DNA of 64,000 bases, from assembly GCA_024636785.1 (NCBI GenBank), contig JAGXGK010000025.1:83476-147475 (forward strand), read 5' to 3'. Below the pieces are notes generated by a model, which searched no databases, was not told where the DNA came from, and saw only the letters and a program-made list of their open reading frames with translations. Of the stretch, positions 19,678 to 60,772 are shown piece by piece. The translations under genes were made by a program, and so were the position numbers. The DNA is from Gammaproteobacteria bacterium (lineage in GTDB: Bacteria; Pseudomonadota; Gammaproteobacteria; SZUA-229). Each line of letters starts with the position of its first letter. Within the stretch, counting starts at the first letter, position 1.

Positions 19678-19687
19678 ATAAAAAAGT

Positions 19688-30223: not shown

Positions 30224-30706
30224 TTAGTCGATGATGGTGCGGCGATCCGGATGCATGAGCTGCGAACAGAAGCCTGCATTGAGCATCTCCTCGACTTCAT
30301 CGGGATCAACAATTTGCTGCTGTGCATTTCTCAGCGGCAGTTCATAGTCATTCCAGCCGCGCAGACCGGTTTGCATCGATTTTACATTGCGGTAACCCAT
30401 GATCTGCATGGTCTGAGCCGCCAGCAGGCTGCGGTTGCCCGAACGACAGATTAAAATGATTTCGCGCTCGCGGGCGGCAATCAGTTCGGGCACTGCGTCT
30501 TCGTACTCTTCTTCGCAGGCGGTCTCAAGAATGCCACGCGGAACCAGCATGGAATGGGCGACGTGGTAAGCGGAAAATTCACACTCCTCACGAATATCCA
30601 GAAGCAGAACATTCTCATCTGCCTGCATACGTTCATCAACGTGCCAGGGGAATAATTCATCGACTTGTTGGCGTGCTTCGGCGACCAGATCTGCAAATTT
30701 TTTCAT
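30224..30706 (-). CDS. rhodanese-domain sulfurtransferase
   Basis: 160 aa with the active-site loop ICRSGNRS. Confidence 0.8.
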   Translation of the reverse strand: MKKFADLVAEARQQVDELFPWHVDERMQADENVLLLDIREECEFSAYHVAHSMLVPRGILETACEEEYEDAVPELIAAREREIILICRSGNRSLLAAQTMQIMGYRNVKSMQTGLRGWNDYELPLRNAQQQIVDPDEVEEMLNAGFCSQLMHPDRRTIID

Positions 30707-30711
30707 AATCT

Positions 30712-31365: not shown

Positions 31366-31419
31366 AATCTGATAATTAAGTCTATGGGTTGAAGTTTAAA
31401 TAGCAGAGCGAGTTCGAAT

Positions 31420-32571
31420 TTATTCGGCCTGTTCTCTGAGATAACGGAATTTTAATTCTATGCGGGTGCCTTCTTCCGGCTCGCTTTCAATTCTTAACTG
31501 GCCACCCAGATGGCGGGCGCGTTCCTGCATAATTGTGAGCCCAAGGTGCTGGCCGTCTTTGCTTTTTATCGCCTTCTTATCAAAACCCCTGCCGTCGTTT
31601 TCTACCAGTATGCGGAAACGGCCGTGGTTATCACAGTTCAGCAGCACTCGAACGATATGCGCATTAGAGTGTTTTTTTATATTAGTCAGTGCTTCCTGCA
31701 CAATACGGTAGATATTCATTTCCATATTTGCCGGCATATCAGGGTCCTGACATTCGCATTGTAGCAGGATATGAATGCCGGTTTCTTCCCTGAATTTCGA
31801 GACGACGCGTTCAATGGAGGGGATCAGGCCCTGTTGCTCGATAGAGCCACGGCAGTGCGCGATGAGTTCGCGTAAATCGGTATAGGCTTCTTCCAGGCCG
31901 TGCTCAACCTGTTCCAGGCTGGTAATGGCCATGTAATCACTGGTGGGCTGTAAGGACTGGTCGAGCACGCGTACCTGAAAACGCAATGAGGCCAGTGTTT
32001 GCGCCAGAGAGTCATGCAGCTCATTGGCGATCATGTTGCGCTCTTCCTGAATCAGTTTTTGCCGGGCGACGTTATCCAGACGGTGCTTTTCGATGGCGAG
32101 GCCGAAATGCTGACCGACAGCCAGCAGCATCAATGCCGTTTCTTCATCAAGATGCAGCTGACCGGCAGGCACAAATATATTGAGTACGCCCAGAGTGTGG
32201 CCACGATGGCGCACCGGGACTGAAATCATTTCAGCGTTTTTATCGTCGATTAAAGTGCCGGCCGGGCTGCGTCGAACCTCTTTGATAGACTGGTTCTCAT
32301 AAACGAACAGGGAGCGCTCAATCGGCGTATGTTGAAGATCCGAAATCTGTTCCTTGCTCATGCCGTAATCAGCGTAGAGATCCATCCAGCCTTCTTCGGA
32401 CATCAGGCGGATGATCGCGGCTGAGCCGGACAGCTTTCGGGTGATATATTTGAGTGAACCCGCACAGGGCGGACTATTGATGTCAGCGGCATTAATGATG
32501 GAGCTGAGTTCATAGAGAGTGGTGAGTGTCGGCAGGGACCATTCGCGGCTGCCGGCAACTGAGTCAGTCAT
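31420..32571 (-). CDS. cytoplasmic GAF-domain sensor histidine kinase (HisKA_3/NarX-type)
   Basis: No TM segment. GAF-like N-terminal half, H-box ANELHDSLAQTL, and HATPase motifs ENDGRGFD and GLTIMQERA. Confidence 0.85.
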   Translation of the reverse strand: MTDSVAGSREWSLPTLTTLYELSSIINAADINSPPCAGSLKYITRKLSGSAAIIRLMSEEGWMDLYADYGMSKEQISDLQHTPIERSLFVYENQSIKEVRRSPAGTLIDDKNAEMISVPVRHRGHTLGVLNIFVPAGQLHLDEETALMLLAVGQHFGLAIEKHRLDNVARQKLIQEERNMIANELHDSLAQTLASLRFQVRVLDQSLQPTSDYMAITSLEQVEHGLEEAYTDLRELIAHCRGSIEQQGLIPSIERVVSKFREETGIHILLQCECQDPDMPANMEMNIYRIVQEALTNIKKHSNAHIVRVLLNCDNHGRFRILVENDGRGFDKKAIKSKDGQHLGLTIMQERARHLGGQLRIESEPEEGTRIELKFRYLREQAE

Positions 32572-32616: not shown

Positions 32617-32931
32617 TCAGTCAGCAGCGGGTGGCGTATAACTCGGGTCGTTAGGGTTCATGAAAATAAATTGCCGTTTACCGGACTCAAGTTCAACAAA
32701 GTCCAGAGTGGTGCCCTGAAGCAGCACGCCGCTCAGCGGGGAGACGATGATTTTAACGCCTTCTGAGGTAACCGCGATATCGTCTTCCTTGTTGTCATCA
32801 AAACCAAGGCCGTAATGAAGGCTGCCATCTTCATTTTTGGTTGCGGCGATACGCAACGGCAGGTCTTTTGCATTACCCTGCTGTGCGGAGAGTCGAATTT
32901 GTTTGGCAGCTTCGGGGGTTATTGTAATCAT
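32617..32931 (-). CDS. dsrR: IscA/HesB-like protein without cysteines (DsrR)
   Basis: Started at MITITPEAAKQI. A-type-carrier-like fold pattern with zero Cys, positioned directly after dsrN as in the Allochromatium vinosum dsr operon. Confidence 0.75.
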   Translation of the reverse strand: MITITPEAAKQIRLSAQQGNAKDLPLRIAATKNEDGSLHYGLGFDDNKEDDIAVTSEGVKIIVSPLSGVLLQGTTLDFVELESGKRQFIFMNPNDPSYTPPAAD

Positions 32932-32944
32932 AAATATAAGGGCT

Positions 32945-34342
32945 TCATGTTGATGGGGTTGCTGTTTTCTGCTGGCGGATAAAATCGACAAAGCGTTTGG
33001 TCCAGCGATTTTTGCTGCTGGTGCGCTGGTGTGTGTAACAGGCTAGCAGGTTTTTATATACATAGCCGTCGTTTTTACCGTTGATGCCGGTTCCGCGTAC
33101 AACTTCAAAGGCAAATCTAGCATTATTATCGAGATTTTCAAAACGCGAATAATGAAATTCATGCGCCGCGATGATCTCATCGGATTTTGATGACCATAAG
33201 CCCCCGGCTGTTTCCTGGAGACGGACATAACCGCGACCCTGTGGTTTTGTCTCCATAACGATGTCGCCGGGGATGATGCCGACCATGTTGCTTTTCTGAT
33301 CCTGCCAACGAATTGAACGTGCCAGATACATCAGACCACCGCATTCAGCGTACACTGGAAGGCCGTTTTCAATGGCCTCATGGATGGCCTGTCGCATCGG
33401 CTGATTGGCTTCGAGCGCCTGTAGATGGGTTTCGGGGAAACCGCCGCCGATAAACAGGCCGTCAATCTCAGGCAGCTCGGTATCAATAATATTATCTATA
33501 TTAACCAGTTCAGCCCCAGCCAGTTCCAGCGCGATGAGATCATCGGGATAGTAGAAACAGAAGGCGGTATTGCGGATGATGCCAATGCGAATATCCCGGG
33601 TGGCAGGTGGTACCGGCATGGGCGGAAGAGGGCGCTGCAGGGGTGGCGCATGGTTAGCGATTTCGATGACACTGTCGATATCAACCTGATCGATAATGGC
33701 CTGTTTTAACAGATCAATTTTATGCTCGGAGTGGGGATCTTCATGACTGGGCAAAAGGCCAAGGTGGCGCTCATCGATATCAAAACGGGCATCTTTATGG
33801 ATAGCGCCGACCACCTGCACGTCGGTGTAGTGTTCGATGACGCGGCGCAGTTTCTCTTCATGACGGGAGCCGCCCAGCTGATTGAGAATCACTCCCCTGA
33901 TGTTGATGTCGCGATCAAAGGCCTGATAACCCAGAATCAGCGGGGCGATGCCGCGGGTCACGCCGCGCGCGTCAAGCACCAGAATAACCGGCGTTTGTGT
34001 TAGTTTCGCCAGCGCAGCATTGCTGTTACTGCCATCAAGGTCCAGACCGTCGTAAAGGCCTTTGTTGCCCTCAATCAGGCTGATATCCGCATCAGCAGAG
34101 TGCAGGGCAATGGTGTCCAGAATCTCATCCGGCGTCATGGTGTAGAAATCAAGATTAAAACAGTGCCGGGGAGCCGCATGATAGCTGCTGGCTCGGGCCA
34201 GCCATTGCGGGTCAATGTAATCGGGACCTTTTTTGAAAGGCTGGACGATTTTCCCTGTCTGACTCAATGCCGCGCACAGGCCAATGCTGACCGTGGTTTT
34301 ACCGGATGACTTATGCGCTGCAGAAATGAATAAACGACTCAC
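32945..34342 (-). CDS. dsrN: cobyrinate a,c-diamide synthase-like amidase (siroheme amidation, DsrN)
   Basis: P-loop AAHKSSGKTTVSIGL and the glutamine amidotransferase motif YAECGGLMYL. Confidence 0.85.
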   Translation of the reverse strand: MSRLFISAAHKSSGKTTVSIGLCAALSQTGKIVQPFKKGPDYIDPQWLARASSYHAAPRHCFNLDFYTMTPDEILDTIALHSADADISLIEGNKGLYDGLDLDGSNSNAALAKLTQTPVILVLDARGVTRGIAPLILGYQAFDRDINIRGVILNQLGGSRHEEKLRRVIEHYTDVQVVGAIHKDARFDIDERHLGLLPSHEDPHSEHKIDLLKQAIIDQVDIDSVIEIANHAPPLQRPLPPMPVPPATRDIRIGIIRNTAFCFYYPDDLIALELAGAELVNIDNIIDTELPEIDGLFIGGGFPETHLQALEANQPMRQAIHEAIENGLPVYAECGGLMYLARSIRWQDQKSNMVGIIPGDIVMETKPQGRGYVRLQETAGGLWSSKSDEIIAAHEFHYSRFENLDNNARFAFEVVRGTGINGKNDGYVYKNLLACYTHQRTSSKNRWTKRFVDFIRQQKTATPST

Positions 34343-42918: not shown

Positions 42919-43995
42919 TTAGAAACGAATATGGGTTGATGCGTTCAAGCTGTTACGGGCACCACGCCAGTTATCGATGTGGTACTTGGTGAACGGCAGA
43001 CCTGTTTTTTCGAAGAAACGGGGCCAGCCAATACGCTCAATCCAGTCGTTCATGCGTTCCCAGTCTTTGGCATCCGCCTTGTAAGCTTTAAGAATCTGCT
43101 TAACAACAGCAGTTGCTTCAGGCCAGCGCGGCGGGTTGTTAGGAATGCCGGCAGCAACCAGTTTCTGGAAAGTAGGTTTGCTACGTGCATTGGAGTGATT
43201 ACCACCTACCCATACCGCTAATTTAGAATGCTCTGCATCGTTGATCTGCATGGGAGGACAAGGAGGGAAACAGGCACCACAACAGATGCATTTCTTCTCA
43301 TCAACTTCCAGGGTAGGTTTGCCGTTAACCATAGCAGGACGAATCGCTGCAACCGGGCAACGTGCAACAACGGTTGGACGTTCACAAACATTAGACACGA
43401 GGTCATGATTGATTTTAGGTGGCTTGGTGTGCTGGATGTTAATCGCAATATCACCCTGGCCGCCGCAGTTAATCTGACAGCAGGAAGTCGTGATGTGCAC
43501 GCGGTTAGGCATGTCAGCATTACGGAACTCGTCGATCAGCTCATCCATCATTGACTTCACAACACCGGAAGCATCTGTACCGGGGATGTCGCAATGCAAC
43601 CAGCCCTGAGTATGAGACATCATGGCGACTGAGTTCTGCGTACCACCAACGATGAAGCCCGCATCAGTAATGGCTTTGATCAGAGGCTCAACTTTAGACG
43701 CATCTGAAACCATATATTCGACGTTACTACGGATAGTAAAGTGAATGTAGCCATCAGCGAATTCATCGCCAATGTCACAAATTTTGCGTAAAGAGAAGAC
43801 ATCCAGAATACGCTGTGTACCTACACGTACAGTCCAGATTTCGTCGCCACTGTAAGCTACGTGACGTAGTACGCCTGGCTTGGGGTGCTCATGATATTTC
43901 CATGCGCCATAGTTTTTGCGCATAACAGGGTGCATGTACTGAAACGCGTCAGGACAGCCGGATTCAATCGGTGAACGAGGTTTATCACTACTCAT
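42919..43995 (-). CDS. dsrB: dissimilatory sulfite reductase beta subunit (reverse/oxidative type by context)
   Basis: 358 aa. Siroheme/[4Fe-4S] cysteine motifs, ferredoxin-like insert CICCGACFPPCP, GAGGAAG RBS. Confidence 0.95.
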   Translation of the reverse strand: MSSDKPRSPIESGCPDAFQYMHPVMRKNYGAWKYHEHPKPGVLRHVAYSGDEIWTVRVGTQRILDVFSLRKICDIGDEFADGYIHFTIRSNVEYMVSDASKVEPLIKAITDAGFIVGGTQNSVAMMSHTQGWLHCDIPGTDASGVVKSMMDELIDEFRNADMPNRVHITTSCCQINCGGQGDIAINIQHTKPPKINHDLVSNVCERPTVVARCPVAAIRPAMVNGKPTLEVDEKKCICCGACFPPCPPMQINDAEHSKLAVWVGGNHSNARSKPTFQKLVAAGIPNNPPRWPEATAVVKQILKAYKADAKDWERMNDWIERIGWPRFFEKTGLPFTKYHIDNWRGARNSLNASTHIRF

Positions 43996-44034
43996 GGTTC
44001 TTCCTCAAATATTTTCTAATATGTTATTTAAGAA

Positions 44035-44051
44035 GGGGGGATTAACCCCCC
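44035..44051 (-). other. G6-ATTAA-C6 stem-loop in the dsrA-dsrB spacer
   Basis: GGGGGGATTAACCCCCC. No following T-tract, so probably an mRNA structure rather than a terminator. Confidence 0.4.
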
Positions 44052-44075
44052 TCCGCGTTATTTTTTCCGCTTAAA

Positions 44076-45338
44076 TTAAGCGTTGGCAGCTTCTTGCTTA
44101 CGCTCAAACCATTTGATCGCTTCATCATCCCAGCCATCCATACGAACATATGAACTTTGACGTGGATTGCTGACCATGTTGGGATCAACTTCCAGATCGA
44201 AGTCAACGCCTTCAAGGAAGTTAACCAGACCGATACGCTCGATCATTTCACCGCAACGTTCATGTTCAAGACCGTTTTCAGCCCAGAAGTCGATGATTTC
44301 TTCAGCCATTTCGATCAGGCTTTCGTAATCTTCTTCTGTCTCCAGCTTCTTGAATGGAACCACAACGGTGCCCATCATGTCGCCGATCTTCAGAGTACGT
44401 TTACCACCAATCAGAATGGTCACACCCTTGTCATCACCGGGGTGCAATGCTTTAGGTAAAACGTTCAGGCAATGCATGCAACGAACACAGTTATGATTGT
44501 CAACAGTCAGAGTGTCGTCGTCGTTCAGAACCAGTGCATTAGTCGGGCAACGGGTAATAACATTGTCGTTAATGTACTGGCGGCCTTTGGTGCCTACATA
44601 AGCTTTAATCGCTTCCTGATCGACTTTCATTTCGTCGCGCCAGGTGCCGATAATGGCCATGTCGGAACGTTCAATCGCATTCTGGCAGTCGTTAGGGCAA
44701 CCTGAAACCTTAAATTTGAATTTGTATGGCAGCGCGGGGCGATGCACGTCATCTGTGAAGTTATTGACCAGGTGACGGTGAATGCCGTGTTCGTTGCAGT
44801 TGGACATCTCGCAACGTGCAGCACCCACACAGGACATCGCAGTACGTACACAGGGACCCGCACCACCCAGATCCCAGCCATATTCATTGATATCGTCAAA
44901 GAATGCCTGAGTGCCGACAGTATCGGTACCGATAAACATAATGTTGCCGGTCTGACCGTGGAAAGTTTGCAGGCCTGAACCGTATTTTTCCCAGCTGTCG
45001 CCCAATTGACGCAGCATGGCAGTGGTGTAGTGGTTGCCGGCAGGGGGCTGAACACGAATGGTGTGGAACTCTTTAGATTCAGGGAATGCGGAAGCTACTT
45101 CTGAGAAGCGGGGAATAATACCGCCGCCATAACCATATACTGAGACAGTGCCGCCTTTCCAGTAACCCTTACGTGTTTCATAAGAGTGCTCAAGCTGGCC
45201 GAGCAGGCTGCTGGTTACATTCTGGATGCGCTCATCGGGATGCTCATCACGAAGTCTCTTGATACCAGAAATAAAACTGGGCCATGGTCCTTCTTCAAGG
45301 ACGTCCAGCATCGGTGTTTCGTATATCTTTTTGGCCAT
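44076..45338 (-). CDS. dsrA: dissimilatory sulfite reductase alpha subunit
   Basis: Started at MAKKIYETPMLDVLEEGPWPSF (AGGAGA RBS); the ORF track starts 30 codons earlier. Ferredoxin-like segment CPTNAL...CVRCMHCLNV. Confidence 0.95.
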   Translation of the reverse strand: MAKKIYETPMLDVLEEGPWPSFISGIKRLRDEHPDERIQNVTSSLLGQLEHSYETRKGYWKGGTVSVYGYGGGIIPRFSEVASAFPESKEFHTIRVQPPAGNHYTTAMLRQLGDSWEKYGSGLQTFHGQTGNIMFIGTDTVGTQAFFDDINEYGWDLGGAGPCVRTAMSCVGAARCEMSNCNEHGIHRHLVNNFTDDVHRPALPYKFKFKVSGCPNDCQNAIERSDMAIIGTWRDEMKVDQEAIKAYVGTKGRQYINDNVITRCPTNALVLNDDDTLTVDNHNCVRCMHCLNVLPKALHPGDDKGVTILIGGKRTLKIGDMMGTVVVPFKKLETEEDYESLIEMAEEIIDFWAENGLEHERCGEMIERIGLVNFLEGVDFDLEVDPNMVSNPRQSSYVRMDGWDDEAIKWFERKQEAANA

Positions 45339-45415
45339 GGATTGTCTCCTGTTGTACCGTCGTTGTCGCGATCTTATGATCGAAACATTGTATTTTGGTT
45401 GAAATCGGGAAGCTG

Positions 45416-45444
45416 ATTGTATTCCCAAATCAAAATGTTCTCAA
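45416..45444 (-). promoter_or_regulatory. candidate sigma70 promoter for dsrA (TTGAGA-17 nt-TACAAT on the minus strand)
   Basis: Read on the minus strand: TTGAGA ACATTTTGATTTGGGAA TACAAT, about 75 nt upstream of the dsrA ATG. Confidence 0.3.
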
Positions 45445-45825
45445 CATCCCAAAGGGACTATGTCTTGCAACAATAATCCTGAGAGGAAATCTGTGAACAA
45501 ATTCTAGAGTGAGCAGGGTCTGTGGAGAACCCTACCCTTGGGGGGGGAGGGGTATCCGGTTTTACCCCAAAAGAGATACAGCTTTATCTTTTTACAGCCT
45601 GGTATGGGCTCTGGTTAAAATCGAAGTGCACTGTTTTTTTTCAGCCGGTTTTTATCGCGCCTGTGCGCTTGCCAGTAAAAGAGGTGGTATATCTATGGCC
45701 TCTATATTAATGTGTTAATTGCATGGAGCAAGGTCTTTGCCTGGCAGCTTCTCCTTAAGTGATATTGTTTTTTTGAACCAATGCCCCCATCCTAAGTCAT
45801 TAATTTCCTGAAATCTATGTAGCGT

Positions 45826-46761
45826 ATGCTCAATTTCAATAGCCACTACTTTCCCGCTCATCATCAGGATCGCACCCGCGTGTTCGATCTCTCGCGCAGT
45901 CGTGACTATGAGCTATGGCGCAATGCAAAGCTGGCCCTGCTGCCTGTTGATGTCGAAGCATTGAAAGTCAAGATAATGAACCCATATACACTGCATGAAA
46001 ATGAGATAATGGCAATCACACAACGTTGCGCTGCCTATGGTGTGGTCATTTATCAACTGCATGAGCCGCCGCATAACGACAAAAGCTGGCTGCCTGAGTT
46101 TGGGCGACAGCTGGGACTGGTGTCGCTGGATGATAATTTGCGCTCTGATGAAGACAGCGTCAGCAGCCTGCAGGTGCAATCGCAACAGGGGAATCAGTAT
46201 ATTCCCTACACCAACAGACCGCTGAGCTGGCATACTGACGGCTATTACAATGCGCCGGAGAAACAGATTCGAACTATCGTCATGCACTGTGCCAGCCCGG
46301 CGGCGAGCGGTGGCGTGAATAGTCTGCTGGATCATGAACAGCTGTATATCGCCCTGCGCGATCGCAATCCGGCCTGGATCGAAGCCCTGATGCACCCTCA
46401 GGCGATGACCATTCCTGCCAATGTCGAAGCCGGTGTTGAAATTCGGGAAGCCAGAACCGGTCCGGTGTTTTCCGTCGATAAAGCCTCGGGAAATCTGCAC
46501 ATGCGCTATTCGGCGCGCAAACGAAATATTGAATGGCGCGATGACGTCCCGACCCGTGAAGCGGTCGAATTCATCAGCGAAAAACTGGCCGATGAAGCCA
46601 TCGCGCTTAAATACCGGCTGGACGCCGGGCAGGGCATTATCTGCAACAACATACTGCACAATCGCAGTGGTTTTGAAGACAGTGACCGGCAGCAGCGCCT
46701 GATGTATCGGGCAAGGTATTATGAACAGCTTGTCGGGCTGAACCCCGCGCAAAACGCATAA
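45826..46761 (+). CDS. TauD/TfdA-family Fe(II)/2-oxoglutarate dioxygenase-like protein
   Basis: 311 aa. SWHTDGYY (HxD), a distal His in ILHNRSG, and an Arg-rich C-terminal part. Confidence 0.75.
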   Translation: MLNFNSHYFPAHHQDRTRVFDLSRSRDYELWRNAKLALLPVDVEALKVKIMNPYTLHENEIMAITQRCAAYGVVIYQLHEPPHNDKSWLPEFGRQLGLVSLDDNLRSDEDSVSSLQVQSQQGNQYIPYTNRPLSWHTDGYYNAPEKQIRTIVMHCASPAASGGVNSLLDHEQLYIALRDRNPAWIEALMHPQAMTIPANVEAGVEIREARTGPVFSVDKASGNLHMRYSARKRNIEWRDDVPTREAVEFISEKLADEAIALKYRLDAGQGIICNNILHNRSGFEDSDRQQRLMYRARYYEQLVGLNPAQNA

Positions 46762-46779
46762 AAATGAGGAGTATATAGA

Positions 46780-46971
46780 ATGCTTTGGTTAAGTGAAGTG
46801 ATGTTACAGGGGCAGGAGCTGGCGAGCTTCGAAGACCTGAAAAAAGAGCTGGGCAAAAGAGCCAAACAGGGCGAACTGTTTTTTCAAATGGACGTGAAAC
46901 CCCCGTACCCCGACACCCCCAACGACTGGCAGGACAAGCTGGAAGCGGCTTTTACCGCCCGGCAGGAGTAG
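46780..46971 (+). CDS. 63-aa hypothetical protein
   Basis: GAGGAG RBS 8 nt upstream. Sits between its two neighbours with gaps of 18 and 9 nt. Confidence 0.5.
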   Translation: MLWLSEVMLQGQELASFEDLKKELGKRAKQGELFFQMDVKPPYPDTPNDWQDKLEAAFTARQE

Positions 46972-46980
46972 AATTTAATC

Positions 46981-47682
46981 ATGCTGTGGGAAGACGAAAA
47001 CAAAGTAACCGAATTTGTACCGCCGGAGAACGTGATTGATCTGTCATTCAAAATCAATTGCAAACAGCTGCCGACCATGCACGCCTGGGAACTATCTCAG
47101 GCGTTGTACGAAATATTGCCCTGGTTAGCCGAAGAGCCGGAGGCCGGTATTCATCAGATACACGGTGCCACCACTGGTAACGGCTGGGAGCGCCCCTCGG
47201 ATGATGAATTCATGTACCTCTCGCGACGCACCCGGATGAATCTGAGAGTGCCAAAAACCCGGGTCGAAGCAACGCTCTCGCTGGTAGGAAAAAAAATAGA
47301 CATTGCCGGGCACGAGCTACAAATCGGCGAAGCCATTGAAAAGCCCCTGAACCCTCTGGGCACGTTATTCTCGCGTTACGTTGTTGTGCCTGACGGTCTG
47401 GATGAAGAGGGATTTCTGCAATGGGTGATCGAAGCGATGGCACAACGCGACATCCATCTGCGAAAAATGCTGTGCGGCATCAGTCACGCCATCCATACCC
47501 CCGATAACGCACTCGAAACCCGCAGCCTGATGATCGCCGACCTCGACAAACAGACCTCCATCGCCTTGCAGGAGCAGGGCATAGGCGAACACCGCCACCT
47601 CGGCTGCGGCATTTTAATGCCGCACAAAGGCATCAAAGCCGTGGGTGAAAGCGAAGAAAAGACACATTTTTCAGGAACCTAG
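46981..47682 (+). CDS. Cas6/Cmx6-like RAMP-superfamily protein (orphan, no CRISPR context)
   Basis: 233 aa. The C-terminal glycine-rich loop GIGEHRHLGCG matches G-h-G-x5-G-h-G exactly. Size and pattern resemble the Cas6/Cmx6 (I-MYXAN) family from memory. Confidence 0.65.
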   Translation: MLWEDENKVTEFVPPENVIDLSFKINCKQLPTMHAWELSQALYEILPWLAEEPEAGIHQIHGATTGNGWERPSDDEFMYLSRRTRMNLRVPKTRVEATLSLVGKKIDIAGHELQIGEAIEKPLNPLGTLFSRYVVVPDGLDEEGFLQWVIEAMAQRDIHLRKMLCGISHAIHTPDNALETRSLMIADLDKQTSIALQEQGIGEHRHLGCGILMPHKGIKAVGESEEKTHFSGT

Positions 47683-47844
47683 GAGGCTGTCGGGTTTAGG
47701 GGGGATTGAAGCGAGGGAGTGGGAGAGTGAGCACACTATTCCCGATTTTGAGGCGCATAGTTATTCTACGCAACGAAAAATTGGGGAGATTTGGGCCGCT
47801 CTCCCACTTCCGCAGCCAATTCATCCTAAATCCGACAGCCTCCT
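47681..47844 (+). mobile_element. 164-bp palindromic MITE-like element, copy 2
   Basis: AGGAGGCTGTCGGGTT...AATCCGACAGCCTCCT. Reverse-complement homologue of 11648-11811. Its first bases overlap the TAG stop of the Cas6-like gene. Confidence 0.8.
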
Positions 47845-47963
47845 AGAGCAATTAAATTGGCTAATATCCCTTTTGAGTAGGTGGAAACCCTGATTCATCT
47901 GATTTAATATTCGGCCACAAATTTTACAACTTCATTAAAAGCAAGATAAAAGGTGAGAAAACT

Positions 47964-48284
47964 ATGGCACTTGAATCAATTGAAAGGACGGAAAATGGCT
48001 ATTTGGTCAATAGCAACGACTGGAATGAAGAAATCGCGGCGGAAATCTTCGCTGAAGAAGGCATTGAACCTACCCAGGATCAATGGGATGTTATTCACTA
48101 TGTACGTGAAGAAACATTGTCCGGTAATGAGCCTAATGAGCGTGGTATCATGAAAGCGATGGGTAAAAAATGGGGTCGTAAGCTTTCTTCCAAAGAAATG
48201 TACGAAATGTTCCCCGGTATGCCTTCAAAACAGGGCCTGAAAATCGGCGGCTGTCCACAGAGCACACGTAAAGGCGGTTATTAA
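47964..48284 (+). CDS. TusE/DsrC-family protein with a non-canonical C-terminus
   Basis: 106 aa. DsrC-like core NGYLVNSNDWNEEIA..DQWDVIHYVRE..., but it ends ..SKQGLKIGGCPQSTRKGGY. Confidence 0.85.
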   Translation: MALESIERTENGYLVNSNDWNEEIAAEIFAEEGIEPTQDQWDVIHYVREETLSGNEPNERGIMKAMGKKWGRKLSSKEMYEMFPGMPSKQGLKIGGCPQSTRKGGY

Positions 48285-48394
48285 TCCATCTTACCCTTAT
48301 GGGGTATAGGGGTCGTTTTCTGGTCAATGCTAGAATCTGACACCTGATTTTAAGAAGACGGGCATCAGCCGGTCATCAACAAAGGTATAAAACT

Positions 48395-48598
48395 ATGAGC
48401 GCGAAAACAGACAAAATCAAAGAAATGCTGGAAATGCAGAAGAAATTTACGGCAAAAGAGCATGCTTCCGGTGTTACCCAGGAAGAATACTACACCCCTG
48501 AAGCCGGTTCTGAACTGGACGGCTACCGTCAAAAATACCGCGATCTGGCCATGGAAGTGATTGATCTTGCTCATAAAGAAGCAGGTTCAGAACGCTAG
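48395..48598 (+). CDS. 67-aa hypothetical protein
   Basis: ORF followed by a strong terminator; the RBS is weak. Confidence 0.4.
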   Translation: MSAKTDKIKEMLEMQKKFTAKEHASGVTQEEYYTPEAGSELDGYRQKYRDLAMEVIDLAHKEAGSER

Positions 48599-48787: not shown

Positions 48788-49462
48788 CTAAGTCTCCGAC
48801 CACATCCGCACCAGATTGACATAACTGTTACTCACCTGTTCGGTGGCGCTGGTGCCGGGCTGGTTTTTGAGTAGTTCTTCACGGGCCTGATGCAGGTTAT
48901 AAAGCAGCTCGCGTCTGGCCGGGTCGCGCACCATGCTTTGCAGCCAGGTGACGGCAACAACGCGTTCGCCGCGGGTCACTTCCGCTACCCGGTGTGTACT
49001 GGAAGAGGGGTACATCACTGCATCACCAGCTTTGAGCTTCACCGCCTGATCGCCAAACGAAGTCTGGATGGTGAGTTCGCCGCCTTCGTAATCCTGCGGT
49101 TCGTTGAGAAACACCGTAATCGACAGATCAGAGCGATAGCGCTGGCCCACTGGCCCCATCACCGGATCATCGACATGGTTGCCGTAGGCCATGCCCTTGC
49201 CGTATTTGGCGTAATAGGGCGCAGCGATTTTCAGCGGCAGCGCCGCCGCCAGATAAACCGGATGATTGATCAACCGCCCCATCAACAGATTGTTCAGCGG
49301 TACCATAAGCTCGTCATTGGCACTCAGCTCCTGATTATGTTTTATGCGCACCGCTTCGTTACCCGCACTCAGTTTGCCATCGACAAACCGGCCGCGTGCC
49401 AGCAGATCGTGCACCACTGCCAGCTCTTCCCGGCTCAAAACATTCGTTAAAGTCAGCAGCAT
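48788..49462 (-). CDS. PKHD-type Fe(II)/2OG hydroxylase (PiuC/YbiX-like)
   Basis: 224 aa. The N-terminus MLLTLTNVLSREEL..FVDGKLSAG is typical of YbiX, with GNHVDDP and SSSTHRV. Confidence 0.82.
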   Translation of the reverse strand: MLLTLTNVLSREELAVVHDLLARGRFVDGKLSAGNEAVRIKHNQELSANDELMVPLNNLLMGRLINHPVYLAAALPLKIAAPYYAKYGKGMAYGNHVDDPVMGPVGQRYRSDLSITVFLNEPQDYEGGELTIQTSFGDQAVKLKAGDAVMYPSSSTHRVAEVTRGERVVAVTWLQSMVRDPARRELLYNLHQAREELLKNQPGTSATEQVSNSYVNLVRMWSET

Positions 49463-49527: not shown

Positions 49528-49884
49528 ATGAAACTCAATATCATTGTCGAAGGCCGCAGCAGCGCCTTTGAAGTACCCGATCAGATTTTATTCGAAGCCT
49601 CGGATTTTTTTGACCAGATGAACGCCGACATGGACAAAGGCTGGCAGATGAGCCGCGACTGGGTGGATAACCCCAACGCTGAACAACGCTGTCAGATTGC
49701 CGCCGAAAAAATGCTCACCGCGATCGAAAATGAAAACGAAAAATTGCTGATGTTGATGGCCGCCTACATCCTGAAAACCATGCCCGGCGTGCGCGGTGTG
49801 AATATCGATATAACCGGTGATATGAACGAAACCGATATCATCATGGAAGCTGAAAGCAATGTGCCTCTGGGGCCGATTTTTTAA
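49528..49884 (+). CDS. hypothetical protein
   Basis: 118-aa ORF divergent from the hydroxylase gene. No motif recognised. Confidence 0.4.
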   Translation: MKLNIIVEGRSSAFEVPDQILFEASDFFDQMNADMDKGWQMSRDWVDNPNAEQRCQIAAEKMLTAIENENEKLLMLMAAYILKTMPGVRGVNIDITGDMNETDIIMEAESNVPLGPIF

Positions 49885-54862: not shown

Positions 54863-55104
54863 TGATAAACCCTCTGTTAATTATCGTATTCATCGACTAA
54901 GCGATGACTCGCGTACAATTGAAGCTGCATTCGCTTAGCCACCAATAATGGAGGCAGATTATAACGTATTACGACGCCATGGTAAAAGTTCTGGTTATAT
55001 CCCTTTGGGGAGAGTTGCAGCGGCATATAAGCAATACTCCCAGTGAGAGGTATTCTCATTAAGGCTTGTATTTTGTAGTATGAGCCCTATATTATGTATT
55101 ACTT

Positions 55105-55681: not shown

Positions 55682-56722
55682 ATGCGTCCAGCTCATCTAT
55701 TAACCGTTATTGAAAAAGAATTTTCCAGCGCCGACACCGGCCACCACACGCCAGTGATGCTGTGGGGTGCGCCCGGGGTGGGTAAATCGCAGATGGTGGC
55801 GCAGATTGCGGAGAACCATAATGTGCCCCTGATTGATATCCGGCTGTCACAGATGGAGCCCAGCGATTTGCGCGGCATTCCCTTCCGGGTGGGCGATCTC
55901 GTGGAATGGGCGGTGCCGGCCATGTTGCCCAACGCGCAACGTCACGGTGAGCGCGGCATTCTGTTTCTCGACGAAATCACCTCGGCACCCCCGAGCGTCT
56001 CCGCCGCCGCCTATCAGCTGATTCTCGACCGCAAACTGGGCGAATATGAAGTGCCCGAAGGCTGGGCGATTATCGCGGCGGGCAATCGTCAGGGCGATCG
56101 CGGCGTGACCTACAGCATGCCCGCACCGCTGGCAAACCGGTTCTCGCATTACGAAGTTGAAGTCAATCTGGATGACTGGGTCGCCTGGGCTTACCTTCAT
56201 GGTATCGACGAGCGCATCATTGCCTTTTTGCGCTTCCGTCAGGATCTGTTATTCGAGTTCGATGCCGCGCAAAATCCGGTCGCTTTCCCCTCGCCACGTT
56301 CCTGGGAGTTTGCCCACCGCGCGCTGCAAAAATTCGACAACTCCAATAATTTATTACTGGGCGCATTGCAGGCCTGTGTCGGCAAAGCTGCCGGCATCGA
56401 AGTCAAAGCCTTTGTCGACAGCCTCGATCAAATGCCCGACCTGGATGCTATCGTCAGAGGCGAAGACCTCGCTGCACCGAAAGAAATTGATCTGCAATAC
56501 GCCGTCGCCACAGCACTGGTTGGACGCGCCATCCGCGCCAAAGAAACCGCCGATGCCATGACCGTACACGGCAATATATTGAACTACGCCAGCCGCTTCC
56601 CGCAACGCGAAATGGGCGTGATGATGGTGTCAGACATGCACCGTGCAGTGGGGCAGGAACTATTTGCCGTCCCGGAGTTCGCGGCCTGGGCGGATAAGAT
56701 TGCGGATATAATGTTGTACTGA
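55682..56722 (+). CDS. MoxR/AAA_5-type AAA+ ATPase
   Basis: Walker A GAPGVGKS, Walker B ILFLDEI, and AAGNRQGDRGV..PLANRF. Confidence 0.88.
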   Translation: MRPAHLLTVIEKEFSSADTGHHTPVMLWGAPGVGKSQMVAQIAENHNVPLIDIRLSQMEPSDLRGIPFRVGDLVEWAVPAMLPNAQRHGERGILFLDEITSAPPSVSAAAYQLILDRKLGEYEVPEGWAIIAAGNRQGDRGVTYSMPAPLANRFSHYEVEVNLDDWVAWAYLHGIDERIIAFLRFRQDLLFEFDAAQNPVAFPSPRSWEFAHRALQKFDNSNNLLLGALQACVGKAAGIEVKAFVDSLDQMPDLDAIVRGEDLAAPKEIDLQYAVATALVGRAIRAKETADAMTVHGNILNYASRFPQREMGVMMVSDMHRAVGQELFAVPEFAAWADKIADIMLY

Positions 56723-56730
56723 TAAGAAAT

Positions 56731-56848
56731 TTCACCGCAGAGGTGATAAGTAGTTTAAGGTCGAAAGCTTTTCACCGCAGAGGCGATAAATAGTTAAGGT
56801 CAAAAGCTTTTTACCGCAGAGGTCGCAGAGAACGCAGAGGAAAAAAAG
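56731..56848 (+). repeat. tandem array of about 40-bp units built on TTCACCGCAGAGG, ending in a full CACCGCAGAG-type unit
   Basis: The units start at 56731, 56771 and 56811. The last one reads TTACCGCAGAGGTCGCAGAGAACGCAGAGGAAAAA. A degenerate unit lies at 56903-56925. Confidence 0.75.
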
Positions 56849-56930
56849 TTTTTAATAGATGCAACCACTATAGAGAATATAAATAGTTTGAATCAAAATC
56901 TTTTATCGCAGAGATGCGGAGGGAAATAAT

Positions 56931-57305
56931 ATGGATGTTAATGAGATTTCTAAGAATGTAATTGGTGCTGCAATTGATGTGCACAGGGTTTTGGGGCCGG
57001 GGTTATTGGAGTCGGCGTATGAAGCCTGTTTGTGTTATGAGTTAGAATTGCGAAATATTAGATTTGCTCGGCAAGCTGATGTTCCAGTGAAATATAAAGG
57101 TGTGAATCTGGAATGCGGTTATCGAATAGATTTGCTGGTTGAGGATAAAATCGTAGAATTGAAATCGGTTGAAAAACTTATGCCAATACACGATGCGCAA
57201 TTACTTTCATATTTGAAATTGACCGGCTGTACAGTCGGCTTACTCATAAATTTTAATGTTTTGGTACTGAAACAGGGTATAAGTAGAAAAGTACTAAACC
57301 ACTAA
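56931..57305 (+). CDS. GxxExxY-family protein (PD-(D/E)xK nuclease superfamily)
   Basis: 124 aa. [24 protein letters not shown] contains the GxxExxY motif, followed by [14 protein letters not shown]. Confidence 0.85.
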
Positions 57306-57377
57306 ACCACTAAACCACGCAAATTGATTTCTTACACGACAATCTGAAAAATGTACTTAACCCACTCATTGATTTTG

Positions 57378-57412
57378 TTTTTCTCCGCGTTCTCTGCGAC
57401 CTCTGCGGTGAA
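57378..57412 (-). repeat. CACCGCAGAG-type unit in inverted orientation (right flank of the GxxExxY cassette)
   Basis: TTTTCTCCGCGTTCTCTGCGACCTCTGCGGTGAA is the reverse complement of the unit at 56811-56848. Confidence 0.75.
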
Positions 57413-57430
57413 CGAACTTAGCTTTTAAAT

Positions 57431-58681
57431 ATGAATAATTACCCTGACGTCGAAATAAAACTCGCTACCGCCAGAACGCGTTTGATTCTGGATAAGCCCT
57501 TTCTGGGCGCGCTGGTGTTGCGTCTGCCGATGGTGCCTGCCGATTCGTCCTGGTGTGAAACTACATTCAGTGACGGCAAAACATTTTTTTACAATAACGA
57601 TTACATTGATGCACTCGATGCGGAGCAAACTCAGTTTGCTTTGTCACACGAAGCCTTGCATTGTGCCTTGTCGCATTTTCATCGTAAGGGCCATCGCGTG
57701 AAGCACCGCTGGGAGTTGGCGTGTGATTATGCGGTTAACCCCATGCTGATCAATGATGGTCTGAAACCCACGCCGGATGCCATGCATCTGCGCGAATATG
57801 AAGGCATGACCGCTGAGGAAATTTACCCCTGTCTGGAAGATAACGACAACGGTGGTGAGCGTGATCTTGAGCAGAACCGCGATGACAGTTCTGAAGATGG
57901 TGACAATGAAACCCCGGAAAATGATGATGGCGGTGGTGACAACGAACGCAAGAAAAACGACAAGCAGGACGGCAAGGGCAATAAAAATGATTCATCAGCG
58001 GAAGGCGGGCAAACCGGCTCCAATCCGCCGCCGGAAATGTCACCGCAGGAGCTGGACGATTTAAGCGTGCAGTGGCAGCAACGCATGGCGGGAGCGGCGC
58101 AGCAGGCGCTACAGTCCGGCAAGCTGGAAGGGGATATGGCGCGTCTGGTTGATCATCTGCTGCAACCTAAATTGCCCTGGCGTATGCTGCTGGCGCGTTA
58201 CATGTCGGCCACCGCCAGAGACGATTACAGTTATGCGCGGCCGTCGAGTCGTCGCGGTGACCCGGCGGTCTATCCCAGCCTGCGCAGCAGCGAAACCAAT
58301 ATCCTGGTTGCCATCGACACCAGTGGTTCGATTTCAGCCGAAGAGATACAGGAATTTATTTCAGAAGTTAATGCCATCAAAAGTCAGGTGCGCGCCAGCA
58401 TCACCCTGCTCACCTGTGATTCCGATTTGAACTATGGCTGCCCGTGGAGATTTGAACCCTGGGATGAATTTAAATTCGATGTAGAAATGCGCGGCGGTGG
58501 CGGCACCAATTTCAAGCCGGTCTTTGCCTGGGCGGAAGCGCAGGACAGAGCACCCGATATGCTGATTTATTTCACCGACGCCGACGGCGTGTTCCCCGAT
58601 GTAGAACCGGCTTTCCCTGTCACCTGGCTGGTCAAAGGCAAGGTTAAAGTACCATTCGGACAGCGGATACAGTTGAACTAA
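57431..58681 (+). CDS. putative metallopeptidase-VWA protein (DUF2201-like partner of the AAA+ ATPase)
   Basis: The N-terminal domain has HEALH (HExxH). An acidic low-complexity linker follows, then a C-terminal VWA domain with MIDAS VAIDTSGS. Confidence 0.85.
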   Translation: MNNYPDVEIKLATARTRLILDKPFLGALVLRLPMVPADSSWCETTFSDGKTFFYNNDYIDALDAEQTQFALSHEALHCALSHFHRKGHRVKHRWELACDYAVNPMLINDGLKPTPDAMHLREYEGMTAEEIYPCLEDNDNGGERDLEQNRDDSSEDGDNETPENDDGGGDNERKKNDKQDGKGNKNDSSAEGGQTGSNPPPEMSPQELDDLSVQWQQRMAGAAQQALQSGKLEGDMARLVDHLLQPKLPWRMLLARYMSATARDDYSYARPSSRRGDPAVYPSLRSSETNILVAIDTSGSISAEEIQEFISEVNAIKSQVRASITLLTCDSDLNYGCPWRFEPWDEFKFDVEMRGGGGTNFKPVFAWAEAQDRAPDMLIYFTDADGVFPDVEPAFPVTWLVKGKVKVPFGQRIQLN

Positions 58682-58693
58682 AAACTTAAAACT

Positions 58694-58792
58694 TTCACCG
58701 CAGAGAGCGCAGAGAAGATCCAAGGTAAAAATTATGTATGAATATAAAACAAAAGAAGTTTTTCTCTGCGACCTCTGCGCCTCTGCGGTGAA
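58694..58792. repeat. inverted pair of CACCGCAGAG-type units without cargo
   Basis: Forward TTCACCGCAGAGAGCGCAGAGAAG (58694-58717) and reverse TTCTCTGCGACCTCTGCGCCTCTGCGGTGAA (58762-58792). Confidence 0.75.
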
Positions 58793-58802
58793 CGAGGTTT
58801 AA

Positions 58803-59921
58803 ATGGAGCTCTCAGCCGAAGACAATCTACGCCTCAATGTTCTGCTTGCGCAAAAGTTGCAGGCGGTGCGTATTGATGAATCGAAAATGATTGTGTATGC
58901 GCTCACCGACAAAGGCGAGGCGAAGGTGGTGCTGAATCCGAACTGCAAGGATGAAAAATATCTGAAAGAGATCAAGGCACTGTTCTCCACGCATGTCATG
59001 GGTTCACCCGGTGGTTATCCGGTGTTTTTGAAACGCTGGACGCGGATGGGGCAGGCTCGGGACGAGAGTTTGCAGCAACTGCTGTTGCTGGGTGAAGAGG
59101 AGGCGGTAGTGGCAGCTGTTTATGCGCAGGGTTTGACCGATGAGCTGGCGGCGCGCGCCTGGTGGATTATGCCGACAGCGGATAATGCACGGCGCATGCT
59201 GGAGAAGCAGGCCGTGGTGCAGGGTAGAACCGGGCCGGTGCTGGCTGATTTTTTAATCGAATTCCTGCCCTTTGAAGAAGACCCGTTTATTATGATCGAG
59301 TCGGTGCGTCTGATCCTGCAGCCGGGTTTGATCAGCGAAGAAGAAAAACAGAAGTTGTGGGCGAAGGCAAAAACCAAACGCAATCTTTACGTCGGTTTCA
59401 TGCACGCACTGCCGGATGACCTTCCTGCCGATGTGGCCGCGAATACAGCTTACGATGCAGTTGCCGATCGACTGCAAACCCAGATTGATAATCACAATCC
59501 CTACGCCTTGATGCTGCGCCGGATTCTGAGTGACCGCGGCCAGGCTTTTGTGCAGACCGCTGAAGTCGCCCTGAAAAAACCCGGTGATCAGCAGGTGGTG
59601 GAGTCCCTGTTTAACGCCATCGCCATCTACTTTCATACAATACGACCCGAAGCTTTTACTCCGTATGATATTGCAGCGATATGCAGCGAAACCGGCTGTC
59701 TCTGTGAAACACTCGATGCTGAAGCGCTGCAAGCCGTGCTGGATGCGGTTCCCGAGATGAAAGACAAAATTCAGGCGATGCTGATACTGTCATGCCTGAG
59801 CGTATGCCTGCTCAACCCGGTTTTCTCACAGACCGACGCCATCGGCACCATGATGCGCAAGAAAATTCAACATATCACTGACCCGATTGTGGAACAGTTG
59901 CGTGTGTTGAGAAGTGAGTAA
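58803..59921 (+). CDS. hypothetical soluble 372-aa protein (possible DsrS-like, unverified)
   Basis: GAGG RBS. No TM segment and no motif recognised. See findings for the DsrS hypothesis. Confidence 0.55.
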   Translation: MELSAEDNLRLNVLLAQKLQAVRIDESKMIVYALTDKGEAKVVLNPNCKDEKYLKEIKALFSTHVMGSPGGYPVFLKRWTRMGQARDESLQQLLLLGEEEAVVAAVYAQGLTDELAARAWWIMPTADNARRMLEKQAVVQGRTGPVLADFLIEFLPFEEDPFIMIESVRLILQPGLISEEEKQKLWAKAKTKRNLYVGFMHALPDDLPADVAANTAYDAVADRLQTQIDNHNPYALMLRRILSDRGQAFVQTAEVALKKPGDQQVVESLFNAIAIYFHTIRPEAFTPYDIAAICSETGCLCETLDAEALQAVLDAVPEMKDKIQAMLILSCLSVCLLNPVFSQTDAIGTMMRKKIQHITDPIVEQLRVLRSE

Positions 59922-59936
59922 AACTTTTTAAAAGCG

Positions 59937-60040
59937 TTCACCGCAGAGGCGCAGAGGGCGCAGAGGGCGCAGAGAAAAACTTTTTTTCTTTAACCAAATT
60001 TTTTTGACCTTCTCTGCGCTCTCTGCGCCTCTGCGGTGAA
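59937..60040. repeat. inverted pair of CACCGCAGAG-type units without cargo
   Basis: Forward TTCACCGCAGAGGCGCAGAGGGCGCAGAGGGCGCAGAGAAAAAC and reverse CCTTCTCTGCGCTCTCTGCGCCTCTGCGGTGAA. The pair fills a convergent intergenic gap. Confidence 0.75.
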
Positions 60041-60045
60041 AGCAG

Positions 60046-60399
60046 TTATCTTTGTTTTTTTAACATTTCCTTATATGCTGCTTCATCGAAACCAGCCAAT
60101 ATAGTTTCACCGGCTTCCAGCACGGGGCGTTTTATGATGCTGGGGTTTTCCAGCATCACCTTAATCGCTGAGGCTTTGTCGATGTTGTTTTTGATGCTGT
60201 CATCCAGCTTGCGCCAGGTGGTGCCGCGTCGGTTTAGCAGAATGTCCCAACCGAGTTTTTTGACCCACTGATGGAGTTCTTTTTCCGGTACGCCGGATTT
60301 TTTGTAGTCGTGAAATTCATAATCGACGCCATTGGCTTCAAGCCACTTACGGGCTTTTTTCATGGTGTCGCAGTTGGGGATACCGTATATTTTTAACAT
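60046..60399 (-). CDS. ArsC/Spx-family protein (YffB-like)
   Basis: MLKIYGIPNCDTMKKARKWLE..., 117 aa. Confidence 0.85.
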   Translation of the reverse strand: MLKIYGIPNCDTMKKARKWLEANGVDYEFHDYKKSGVPEKELHQWVKKLGWDILLNRRGTTWRKLDDSIKNNIDKASAIKVMLENPSIIKRPVLEAGETILAGFDEAAYKEMLKKQR

Positions 60400-60417
60400 T
60401 TTAAAACCTTTAGTGCT

Positions 60418-60494
60418 TTCACCGCAGAGGCGCAGAGAACGCAGAGAAAACCTTTATTGTTTTATCTATGCGCCTTCTGTGTCTCCGCAGTGAA
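60418..60494. repeat. inverted pair of CACCGCAGAG-type units (right unit degenerate)
   Basis: TTCACCGCAGAGGCGCAGAGAACGCAGAGAAAA ... TGCGCCTTCTGTGTCTCCGCAGTGAA. Confidence 0.65.
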
Positions 60495-60522
60495 TGATTT
60501 TATCTTTTTATTAATCGATAAA

Positions 60523-60681
60523 CTGTCATCCCGAACGCAGAGAGGAATCTTCAACTGTTTGATGTACGGATGAACTCATGTACAAGATTTACTGCGGGCA
60601 TCCTTGCCCTGCACCCTTCGGGCCAGCTTCGCTGTTCAAATCGCTCCATGCGATTTAGTCTCCCTATGGTCGAAATGACAG
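60523..60681. mobile_element. 159-bp MITE-like element with imperfect CTGTCAT(Y)(Y)CGA termini
   Basis: The left end is CTGTCATCCCGAACGCAGAGAGGAATC. The right end is ...GTCTCCCTATGGTCGAAATGACAG, whose reverse complement is CTGTCATTTCGACCATAGGGAGAC. Confidence 0.5.
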
Positions 60682-60688
60682 GAGTATT

Positions 60689-60754
60689 TTCACCGCAGAG
60701 ACGCGGAGAAAACAAAATATTTATTGTTTTTACCTCTGCGCTCTCTGCGGTGAA
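60689..60754. repeat. inverted pair of CACCGCAGAG-type units
   Basis: TTCACCGCAGAGACGCGGAGAAAAC ... TACCTCTGCGCTCTCTGCGGTGAA. Confidence 0.7.
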
Positions 60755-60772
60755 CAATTTTTTATCTTTTAA

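Follow-up and report, generated by a model that had tools for sequence, protein, structure and literature searches.

A dsr-linked clade of Cas6-family proteins in sulfur-oxidiser lineages

The operon divergent from dsrA and its Cas6-like protein

The stretch of DNA considered here, referred to as the window, comprises 64,000 nucleotides of a Gammaproteobacteria bacterium assembly (GenBank GCA_024636785.1, contig JAGXGK010000025.1, positions 83,476 to 147,475 of the forward strand). Divergently from dsrA, it harbours an operon whose third gene codes for a protein publicly annotated as type I-MYXAN CRISPR-associated protein Cas6/Cmx6 (CRISPR: short palindromic repeats that are clustered and regularly interspaced), named here the Cas6-like protein. 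The initial annotation, made from the letters alone, had described three same-strand open reading frames (ORFs) separated by gaps of 18 nt (tauD-like/s63) and 9 nt (s63/Cas6-like), with a GAGGAG ribosome-binding site 5' of the s63 start at 46780, a 487-bp divergent control region shared with dsr, and a variant dsrC paralogue 3' of the operon. All these features were reproduced, the length of the dsrA/tauD spacer following from the position of the dsrA ATG (45338). The genes of the locus are the following.

45826-46761, plus strand: tauD-like ORF, 311 amino acids (aa), TauD/TfdA-family Fe(II)/2-oxoglutarate (2OG) dioxygenase, first gene of the operon
46780-46971, plus strand: s63 ORF, 63 aa, acidic partner protein outside known families and folds
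46981-47682, plus strand: Cas6-like ORF, 233 aa, repeat-associated mysterious protein (RAMP) with two predicted RRM domains, from a dsr-linked non-CRISPR clade
47964-48284, plus strand: DsrC-like ORF, DsrC/TusE-family paralogue lacking both cysteines of the C-terminal arm
48395-48598, plus strand: s67 ORF, conserved 67-aa protein after the DsrC-like gene, assigned by synteny
48788-49462, minus strand: PKHD/YbiX-type Fe(II)/2OG hydroxylase (NF003975, 243 bits), synteny-conserved neighbour
49528-49884, plus strand: acidic conserved protein of 118 aa, assigned by synteny, no family match
44076-45338, minus strand: dsrA, from the ORF, Pfam matches of orthologous loci and phmmer synteny
42919-43995, minus strand: dsrB, on the same basis

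The Cas6/Cmx6-type model that had been predicted for 46981-47682 was indeed found. The protein matches PF09559 with 205.4 bits and an E-value of 1e-60 (cut-off 26.7 bits), NCBIfam TIGR02807 (cas6_cmx6, type I-MYXAN) with 130.6 bits (trusted cut-off 98.85), and the Cas6 models of PADLOC, with E-values down to 1.8e-59. Its AlphaFold2 model, built from an input of 36 diverse homologues, has a predicted local distance difference test (pLDDT) score of 89.6 and a predicted template modelling score of 0.83. The Cas6 fold anticipated in the initial annotation was recovered with Foldseek, all of the top 38 matches being Cas6-family (Cas6/Cse3) chains. The best PDB matches are 8fcj_B and 8fcu_B, the Cas6 of a type I-B CRISPR-associated transposon (CAST) Cascade (E 3e-15, template modelling (TM) scores of 0.75-0.82), followed by Pyrococcus Cas6, Thermus Cse3 and E. 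coli Cas6e, and a sequence profile search of the PDB likewise returned 8fcj_B first (1.7e-18). Since sequence models and fold matches agree, the protein is a genuine Cas6-family RAMP, modelled with two ferredoxin-like (RRM) domains. The G-h-G-x5-G-h-G loop noticed from the outset is an exact match (QGIGEHRHLGCG, residues 200-210, G200-I-G-EHRHL-G-C-G210), but it does not lie at the very end of the protein, as 17 residues follow it. Besides family, two-RRM fold and this C-terminal loop, the D-H, R89 and R132 positions are shared with the Cas6 of type I-MYXAN, I-B and I-D systems (e.g. 8fcj).

With regard to the CRISPR-linked members of the family, the window protein is only 23-29% identical to those of cyanobacterial plasmids. 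At least H1 and H3 among these adjoin cas3, the H3 locus having a full cas operon, and the Synechocystis PCC 6714 copy stands at the head of a full cas6-cas3-cmx8-cas5-cas4/1-cas2 operon plus one gene annotated Cas8. An insertion of eight residues with the pattern S-G-N-G-W (positions 64-71 of the window protein) is present in 144 of the 144 full-length clade representatives and absent from both CRISPR-linked comparators. On the other hand, D33-H34, R89, R132, Q197, the four glycines of the loop and F212, common to the clade and a CRISPR-linked member, are conserved at 86-99% in the clade, and the candidate catalytic residues His34 and His58 at 88-90%. Related sequences fall into 937 clusters at 50% identity with E<=0.001, and into 156 with E<=1e-30. 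On such comparisons, the Cas6-like protein is a member of a large separate clade, and no stray cas6 product. The gene is under strong purifying selection, with a ratio of non-synonymous to synonymous substitution rates (dN/dS) of 0.086 and 43 synonymous versus 15 non-synonymous differences from a 94%-identical relative. In an alignment of 145 representatives, some 30 positions reach a conservation of at least 85%, and the ORF is intact in nearly all 165 distinct loci of the set described below, that of locus L165 looking split. That the gene could be a decaying, functionless relic has nothing in its favour beyond the lack of a known role, and these values make it a practically negligible explanation.

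The prediction of a TauD-type enzyme for 45826-46761 also held, with a PF02668 match of 61.5 bits (cut-off 27; 1.6e-16) and the SWHTDGYY and ILHNRSG segments in place; the corresponding motifs WHTDGYYN and NN.LHNR, which contain the HxD...H iron ligands, are invariant in 99 homologues. Its nearest characterised relatives, TmpA, BBOX and TMLH, score 37-46 bits against family cut-offs of 268-415, so that it falls outside these families. The s63 protein has 22 invariant residues in 31 homologues, and its AlphaFold2 model consists of three helices (pLDDT 83). No match to s63 was found in Pfam, NCBIfam or PADLOC, and no PDB fold match to its model. NCBI names it "sulfur relay protein DsrC", and one source names s67 "phosphosulfolactate synthase (ComA)", in both cases with no Pfam or NCBIfam support; s67 and the 118-aa protein have no match in these two libraries. 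The s63 gene is probably translationally coupled to the Cas6-like gene.

The DsrC-like protein matches PF04358 (85 bits, 5e-24) and TIGR03342 (71.2 bits versus a cut-off of 53.5), and resembles DsrC/TusE in length and pattern. However, DsrC ends in ..TGCV with its arm cysteines, whereas the DsrC-like protein ends in ..GGCPQSTRKGGY in the window and in ..GLPESRRKGGY in L031, the terminal RKGGY being invariant in 118 sequences, and neither canonical cysteine position of the C-terminal arm is conserved. It therefore cannot carry a persulfide or trisulfide in the known way. No fusion of the Cas6-like protein with s63 or the DsrC-like protein occurs among the longer family members, which proved to be mis-called starts or frameshifts. 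Directly after the DsrC-like gene lies a terminator-like hairpin (ACCCTTATGGGGTATAGGGGT followed by CGTTTTC, window 48293-48313), and s67 starts 80 nt later. The DsrC-like/s67 spacer is conserved in close relatives, and the hairpin may act as an attenuator.

On the other side of the control region, dsrA and dsrB open an oxidative cluster, dsrABEFHCMKLJOPNR, in which DsrL, DsrP, DsrN and DsrR domains were matched (dsrN at 32945-34342, dsrR at 32617-32991). The window also harbours aprBA and sat, recognised by eye from the ORF translations, as well as a two-component system and housekeeping genes. Near aprBA and sat, the ORF at 19042-19677 encodes a GBBH-like N-terminal domain (PF06155/DUF971) fused to a ThiS/MoaD-like domain, an unusual small sulfur-carrier-like protein.

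Distribution and gene neighbourhood of the clade

In a scan of 185,579 genomes, one per species, relatives of the Cas6-like protein were found in at least 574 species genomes. The best 80 matches are 44-76% identical and nearly all gammaproteobacterial, and wherever a genus or order is given for them, it is a sulfur-oxidiser lineage. A few records of the clade are labelled beta- or unclassified proteobacteria. Carriers include Thiothrix, Thiohalobacter, Thiogranum, Acidiferrobacterales, Sulfuricaulis and Ectothiorhodospiraceae, and further Thiomargarita, Cocleimonas, Arenicellales and Ca. Poriferihabitaceae. A separate scan of metagenome contigs, which gives a broad sample and not the relatives of the deepest representatives of the clade, provided another 80 loci, 32-43% identical to a distant query, and a profile search for the deep branches returned central members only. 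Together with contig look-ups, the two collection scans yielded 171 loci (1.65 Mb), of which 165 are distinct. Neighbouring genes were marked by phmmer with the window proteins as single queries, so that the proportions given below are lower bounds, and their denominators are the loci with enough flanking sequence.

The s63 gene lies directly 5' of the Cas6-like gene in 140 of 152 loci, and a DsrC-like gene follows 3', or is inverted nearby, in 117 of 128. A divergent dsrA is found at a distance of 7.5 kb or less in 80 of 90 loci (about 89%). The usual arrangement is dsrKMCHFEBA transcribed to the left and, to the right, tauD, s63, cas6-like, dsrC-like and s67, followed by a leftward PKHD hydroxylase gene, a rightward p119 and a leftward DUF6866 gene. 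Median gaps of 2 nt between tauD and s63 and of 10 nt between s63 and the Cas6-like gene point to an operon. The linkage, whose loss in related genomes would have spoken against the initial annotation, thus extends far beyond close relatives, and the dsr context remains constant across Thiothrix, Thiohalobacter, Thiogranum, Acidiferrobacterales, Ectothiorhodospiraceae and other lineages at 33-76% identity.

The initial annotation had viewed the operon as a TauD/63-aa/RAMP trio. The linkage of s63 and the Cas6-like gene stands, but the TauD-like protein is not an obligatory member: its gene is present in 99 of 117 loci (85%) and missing in about 15%, among them L007, which is closely related to the window organism and in which s63 directly follows the divergent spacer. 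Furthermore, loci resembling those of large sulfur bacteria (Beggiatoaceae-like) keep s63 and the Cas6-like gene only, away from dsr. What stays constant is thus the pair of s63 and the Cas6-like gene, which forms the core of the operon, usually with the cysteine-less DsrC-like gene, the TauD-like gene being frequent but dispensable. These distributions bear on an alternative in which the TauD-like and PKHD-type oxygenases would form a modification or O2-sensing pathway, hydroxylating a cluster protein or RNA (the RKGGY arm of the DsrC-like protein, s63, s67 or an RNA), with the Cas6-like protein as a substrate-presenting scaffold. Two intact Fe(II)/2OG oxygenases conserved nearby, the invariant C-terminus of the DsrC-like protein and the extreme conservation of the small proteins are all in line with such a pathway. 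However, the loci without tauD and the Beggiatoaceae-like two-gene loci indicate that the oxygenases are not obligatory partners, and we consider this alternative improbable.

The gap between s63 and the Cas6-like gene reaches about 0.6-1 kb in Acidiferrobacterales, Sulfuricaulis and similar loci (L031, L024, L054, L069, L071, L072, L074, L077, L108, L112, L124, L151, L152 and L168). In L031, it contains a 234-aa ORF of no known family (7294-7998), and a two-domain rhodanese gene (9168-10016) follows the DsrC-like gene. Other peculiarities concern the dsr side. In one lineage (L001 and L009, 5800-8750), genes for a rubrerythrin/ferritin-like protein, a CCG-domain protein and a DUF3501 protein have been inserted between dsrA and tauD, which lengthens the spacer to 3.2 kb. 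In L003 (6082-8226, ENA contig of 2.5 Mb), dsrA is broken into two ORFs and so is dsrB, while tauD-s63-cas6-like is intact; these splits could be long-read frameshift errors or reflect pseudogenisation.

Concerning CRISPR-Cas, the initial annotation had reported neither an array nor any other cas gene in the 64 kb. The first part stands, no CRISPR array and no Rfam match being present in the window, and phmmer found no relative of the I-MYXAN cas3, cmx8, cas7, cas5, cas4/1 or cas2 among its ORFs. The second part holds for the I-MYXAN set and for the approximately 30 of about 63 window ORFs compared with Pfam, in which no Cas family besides the Cas6-like one was found, the remaining ORFs being without a general Cas-library scan. 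No CRISPR array was detected in the 171 related loci either, the search covering the loci and not whole genomes; an automatic array match in L063 is a 92-nt tandem repeat. In the same loci, phmmer with the Synechocystis PCC 6714 set revealed no I-MYXAN cas homologue, other cas subtypes being outside this search, and precomputed Pfam matches for the genes of L001-L006 and L088-L092 contain no Cas family except Cas6 itself. An ordinary cas6 displaced from its system and serving a CRISPR-Cas locus elsewhere in the genome would fit the score above the TIGR02807 equivalog cut-off and the Cas6/Cmx6 name given by NCBI. Nevertheless, the clade-wide dsr context, the distinct insertion and charge, the low identity to CRISPR-linked Cas6 and the 1.65 Mb free of arrays and I-MYXAN cas genes make this explanation, which the initial annotation had listed among its possible refutations, very improbable at the level of the clade.

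Control region and candidate RNA elements

The spacer between dsrA and tauD and the neighbourhood of the Cas6-like gene contain several conserved or repeated elements.

45339-45825, no strand: divergent dsrA/tauD control region, with blocks conserved across relatives
45563-45578, no strand: 16-bp palindrome TAYCYC-N4-GRGRTA, here TACCCCAAAAGAGATA, candidate operator
45416-45444, minus strand: sigma-70-type dsrA promoter TTGAGA-17-TACAAT, 10/12 match, best promoter-like site, conserved in the alignment
47866-47881, plus strand: degenerate operator copy TATCCCTTTTGAGTAG, 5' of the DsrC-like gene
44032-44054, minus strand: GC-rich dsrA-dsrB intercistronic hairpin without U-tract, speculative candidate RNA ligand
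47679-47846, no strand: insertion resembling a miniature inverted-repeat transposable element (MITE), palindromic, length about 168 nt, terminal inverted repeats of 30 nt, not belonging to the system

The palindrome is present, with at least 9 of 12 positions matching, in 91 of 97 distinct dsrA|tauD spacers, and its strict pattern occurs 62 times in 1.07 Mb of related DNA, only eight of these matches lying outside this spacer. In the spacer between the Cas6-like and DsrC-like genes, a degenerate copy (TATCCCTTTTGAG) recurs ahead of the DsrC-like gene in many loci, those of Thiothrix included, and a further near-match is found in the window at 54998-55013, near DUF6866 and MoxR-VWA genes. Changes in the two half-sites are independent and strand-symmetric, with 36 (plus) versus 40 (minus) G.U-compatible changes and few compensatory ones, which argues for the site of a dimeric DNA-binding protein and not for an RNA hairpin. 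The palindrome was thus rejected as an RNA substrate of the Cas6-like protein, the more so as it lies 5' of both inferred promoters. Its conservation points to shared transcriptional control of the two divergent units, and it may define a dsr regulon. We take it to resemble the 7-2-7 arrangement of TACYYMT heptamers of NarL. At the end of the dsr cluster (window 30224-32571, minus strand) are encoded a GAF-HisKA_3 kinase (31420-32571), a NarL/LuxR-type response regulator (30712-31365) and a single-domain rhodanese, and the kinase/response-regulator pair is a candidate dsr regulator.

Among possible RNA partners, the initial annotation had put forward the adjacent 164-nt palindromic element. 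This proposal has to be abandoned, because the element is a MITE-like insertion with a second copy some 36 kb away (11648-11799, 91%, overlapping a spurious 94-aa ORF) and a partial copy at 13330-13362; it is inserted precisely where the Cas6-like gene ends, at its TAG stop, and is absent from all relatives. The hairpin between dsrA and dsrB has other properties. It comprises nine pairs, four of them with compensatory changes among the relatives of the window, and a strong version exists in 60 of 78 distinct spacers, only three having a U-rich tail. The sequence after it is CUUAAAUAACA in the window and CUAACAA in most relatives. With one site per locus, it does not qualify as a mini-array.

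Elsewhere in the window, a family of short dispersed repeats, made of TTCACCGCAGAG with (CGCAGAG)n after it, occurs in both orientations at 56700-60770 and 19671-19722. These repeats flank MoxR-AAA, PDDEXK_3 and DUF2201 genes and look like elements of the repetitive extragenic palindromic type.

Possible roles and significance

The Cas6 family membership and fold, the separate clade, its linkage to dsr and the lack of arrays agree with the initial idea of a domesticated RAMP protein. We estimate at roughly 0.9 the probability that the Cas6-like protein is a domesticated, non-immune Cas6 homologue, fixed at the oxidative dsr locus as an accessory. As to its action, a single regulator working at the palindrome would turn on the module along with dsr. 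The Cas6-like protein, probably complexed with s63, would serve as a specific binder of structured RNA, possibly also as a single-turnover endoribonuclease. In this way it would modulate the transcripts of the dsr regulon, be it their stability, their processing or their translation. This model draws on the conservation of the residues shared with Cas6 and on the stable dsrA-dsrB hairpin with its compensatory changes. On these sequence features, RNA binding or processing is the reading that we favour, a tentative one with somewhat less than an even chance, and the same holds for the whole explanation, domestication at the dsr locus plus the RNA mechanism. A more specific version, in which the exapted Cas6 would be a housekeeping factor for site-specific RNA processing or clamping in the regulon of the reverse Dsr (rDsr) pathway, with the dsrA-dsrB hairpin as a possible site, is doubtful.

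Several observations weigh against these proposals. The window protein is acidic, with an isoelectric point (pI) of 5.36 and a net charge of -12, and therefore lacks, as far as bulk charge tells, the basic RNA-binding character typical of Cas6. The median pI of the clade is 5.9 (384 members) versus 9.2-9.4 in two CRISPR-linked members, which somewhat weakens the case for RNA, and R205, the basic residue of the glycine-rich loop, is retained in only 89 of 145 members. No mapped catalytic residues are available for this Cas6 subfamily (none could be obtained from PMC5741207), so that the sequence offers no argument for retained activity. Of 78 loci with the Cas6-like gene, 18 have no dsrA-dsrB hairpin. 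RNAalifold gave no pairs in the tauD leader or the tauD-proximal half of the spacer, and in the related loci no repeat-like hairpin is conserved beside the Cas6-like gene. Lastly, the array search concerned loci and not whole genomes.

The same charge data lend themselves to a close rival of the RNA model, namely that the RAMP fold was kept while RNA binding was lost, and that the Cas6-like protein, together with s63, would be an activator, chaperone or adaptor that binds to rDsrAB, to DsrC or to the DsrC-like protein. The shift of about 17-19 charge units relative to CRISPR-linked members, the acidic nature of all the small partner proteins, the tight coupling to s63 and the DsrC paralogue, and the lack of a cognate hairpin would all be accounted for. 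A precedent comes from DsrD of sulfate reducers. This small protein, likewise encoded at the dsr locus, has a DNA-binding winged-helix fold, and its adjacency to dsrAB suggested regulation, but what was shown for it is allosteric activation of DsrAB (PMC8794893). Winged-helix DsrD belongs to organisms with the reductive type of pathway, whereas the Cas6-like protein is a RAMP found with oxidative-type dsr, dsrEFH and dsrL being present. Against this rival, D33-H34, R89, R132 and the glycine-rich loop are still highly conserved, for which there is no obvious reason without RNA contact, and neither a fusion nor any other sign of direct protein contact was found. By analogy with DsrD, this protein-level role is conceivable, though somewhat less likely than RNA binding or processing.

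Reading the Cas6-like protein as a domesticated Cas6 homologue invites comparison with the CRISPR-Cas variants, derived or exapted, that Koonin and Makarova have reviewed, such as Tn7-CAST, type IV, Streptomyces I-E with STAND, and HRAMP (PMC6452270, PMC8730458). The likeness is that a Cas component is kept after the loss of adaptation and interference. These variants, however, retain several subunits of the effector (cas5/7/8 and, optionally, cas6), where here a single Cas6 homologue is found. Most of them (CASTs, type IV) are still guide-RNA-dependent, and they reside on mobile elements or in defence contexts, whereas the Cas6-like gene belongs to a core energy-metabolism locus. Neither review mentions a dsr-linked Cas6 clade. 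In full-text searches, no link of Cas6, Cmx6 or PF09559 to dsr or TauD was found, the matches examined being ordinary CRISPR loci only; an earlier notice in a subscription journal is possible. We would thus describe a familiar family and fold in a conserved setting that is new and apparently non-immune, a re-use of an immune-system part that we did not find described.

In practical terms, the genomes of at least 574 species labelled as containing type I-MYXAN Cas6/Cmx6 inflate the counts of CRISPR-Cas systems in sulfur oxidisers, and a correction is due. The clade would provide a clear example of one Cas protein on its own passing from immunity into a chromosomal metabolic locus, in contrast to the derivatives known so far, which are multi-subunit and borne by mobile elements. 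If it does process or clamp RNA of the rDsr regulon, it would be the first among Cas proteins to be domesticated into core energy metabolism. With regard to sulfur oxidation, little is understood as yet of how the rDsr pathway is regulated and of its accessory factors, and at least three conserved, unstudied genes, coding for s63, the Cas6-like protein and the cysteine-less DsrC-like protein, travel with oxidative dsrAB. Should that RNA role of the Cas6-like protein be correct, these three would represent a previously unrecognised accessory subsystem of the Dsr pathway, and the existence of culturable carriers (Thiothrix lacustris DSM 21227, T. fructosivorans ATCC 49748 and Thiohalobacter) makes the question directly testable.

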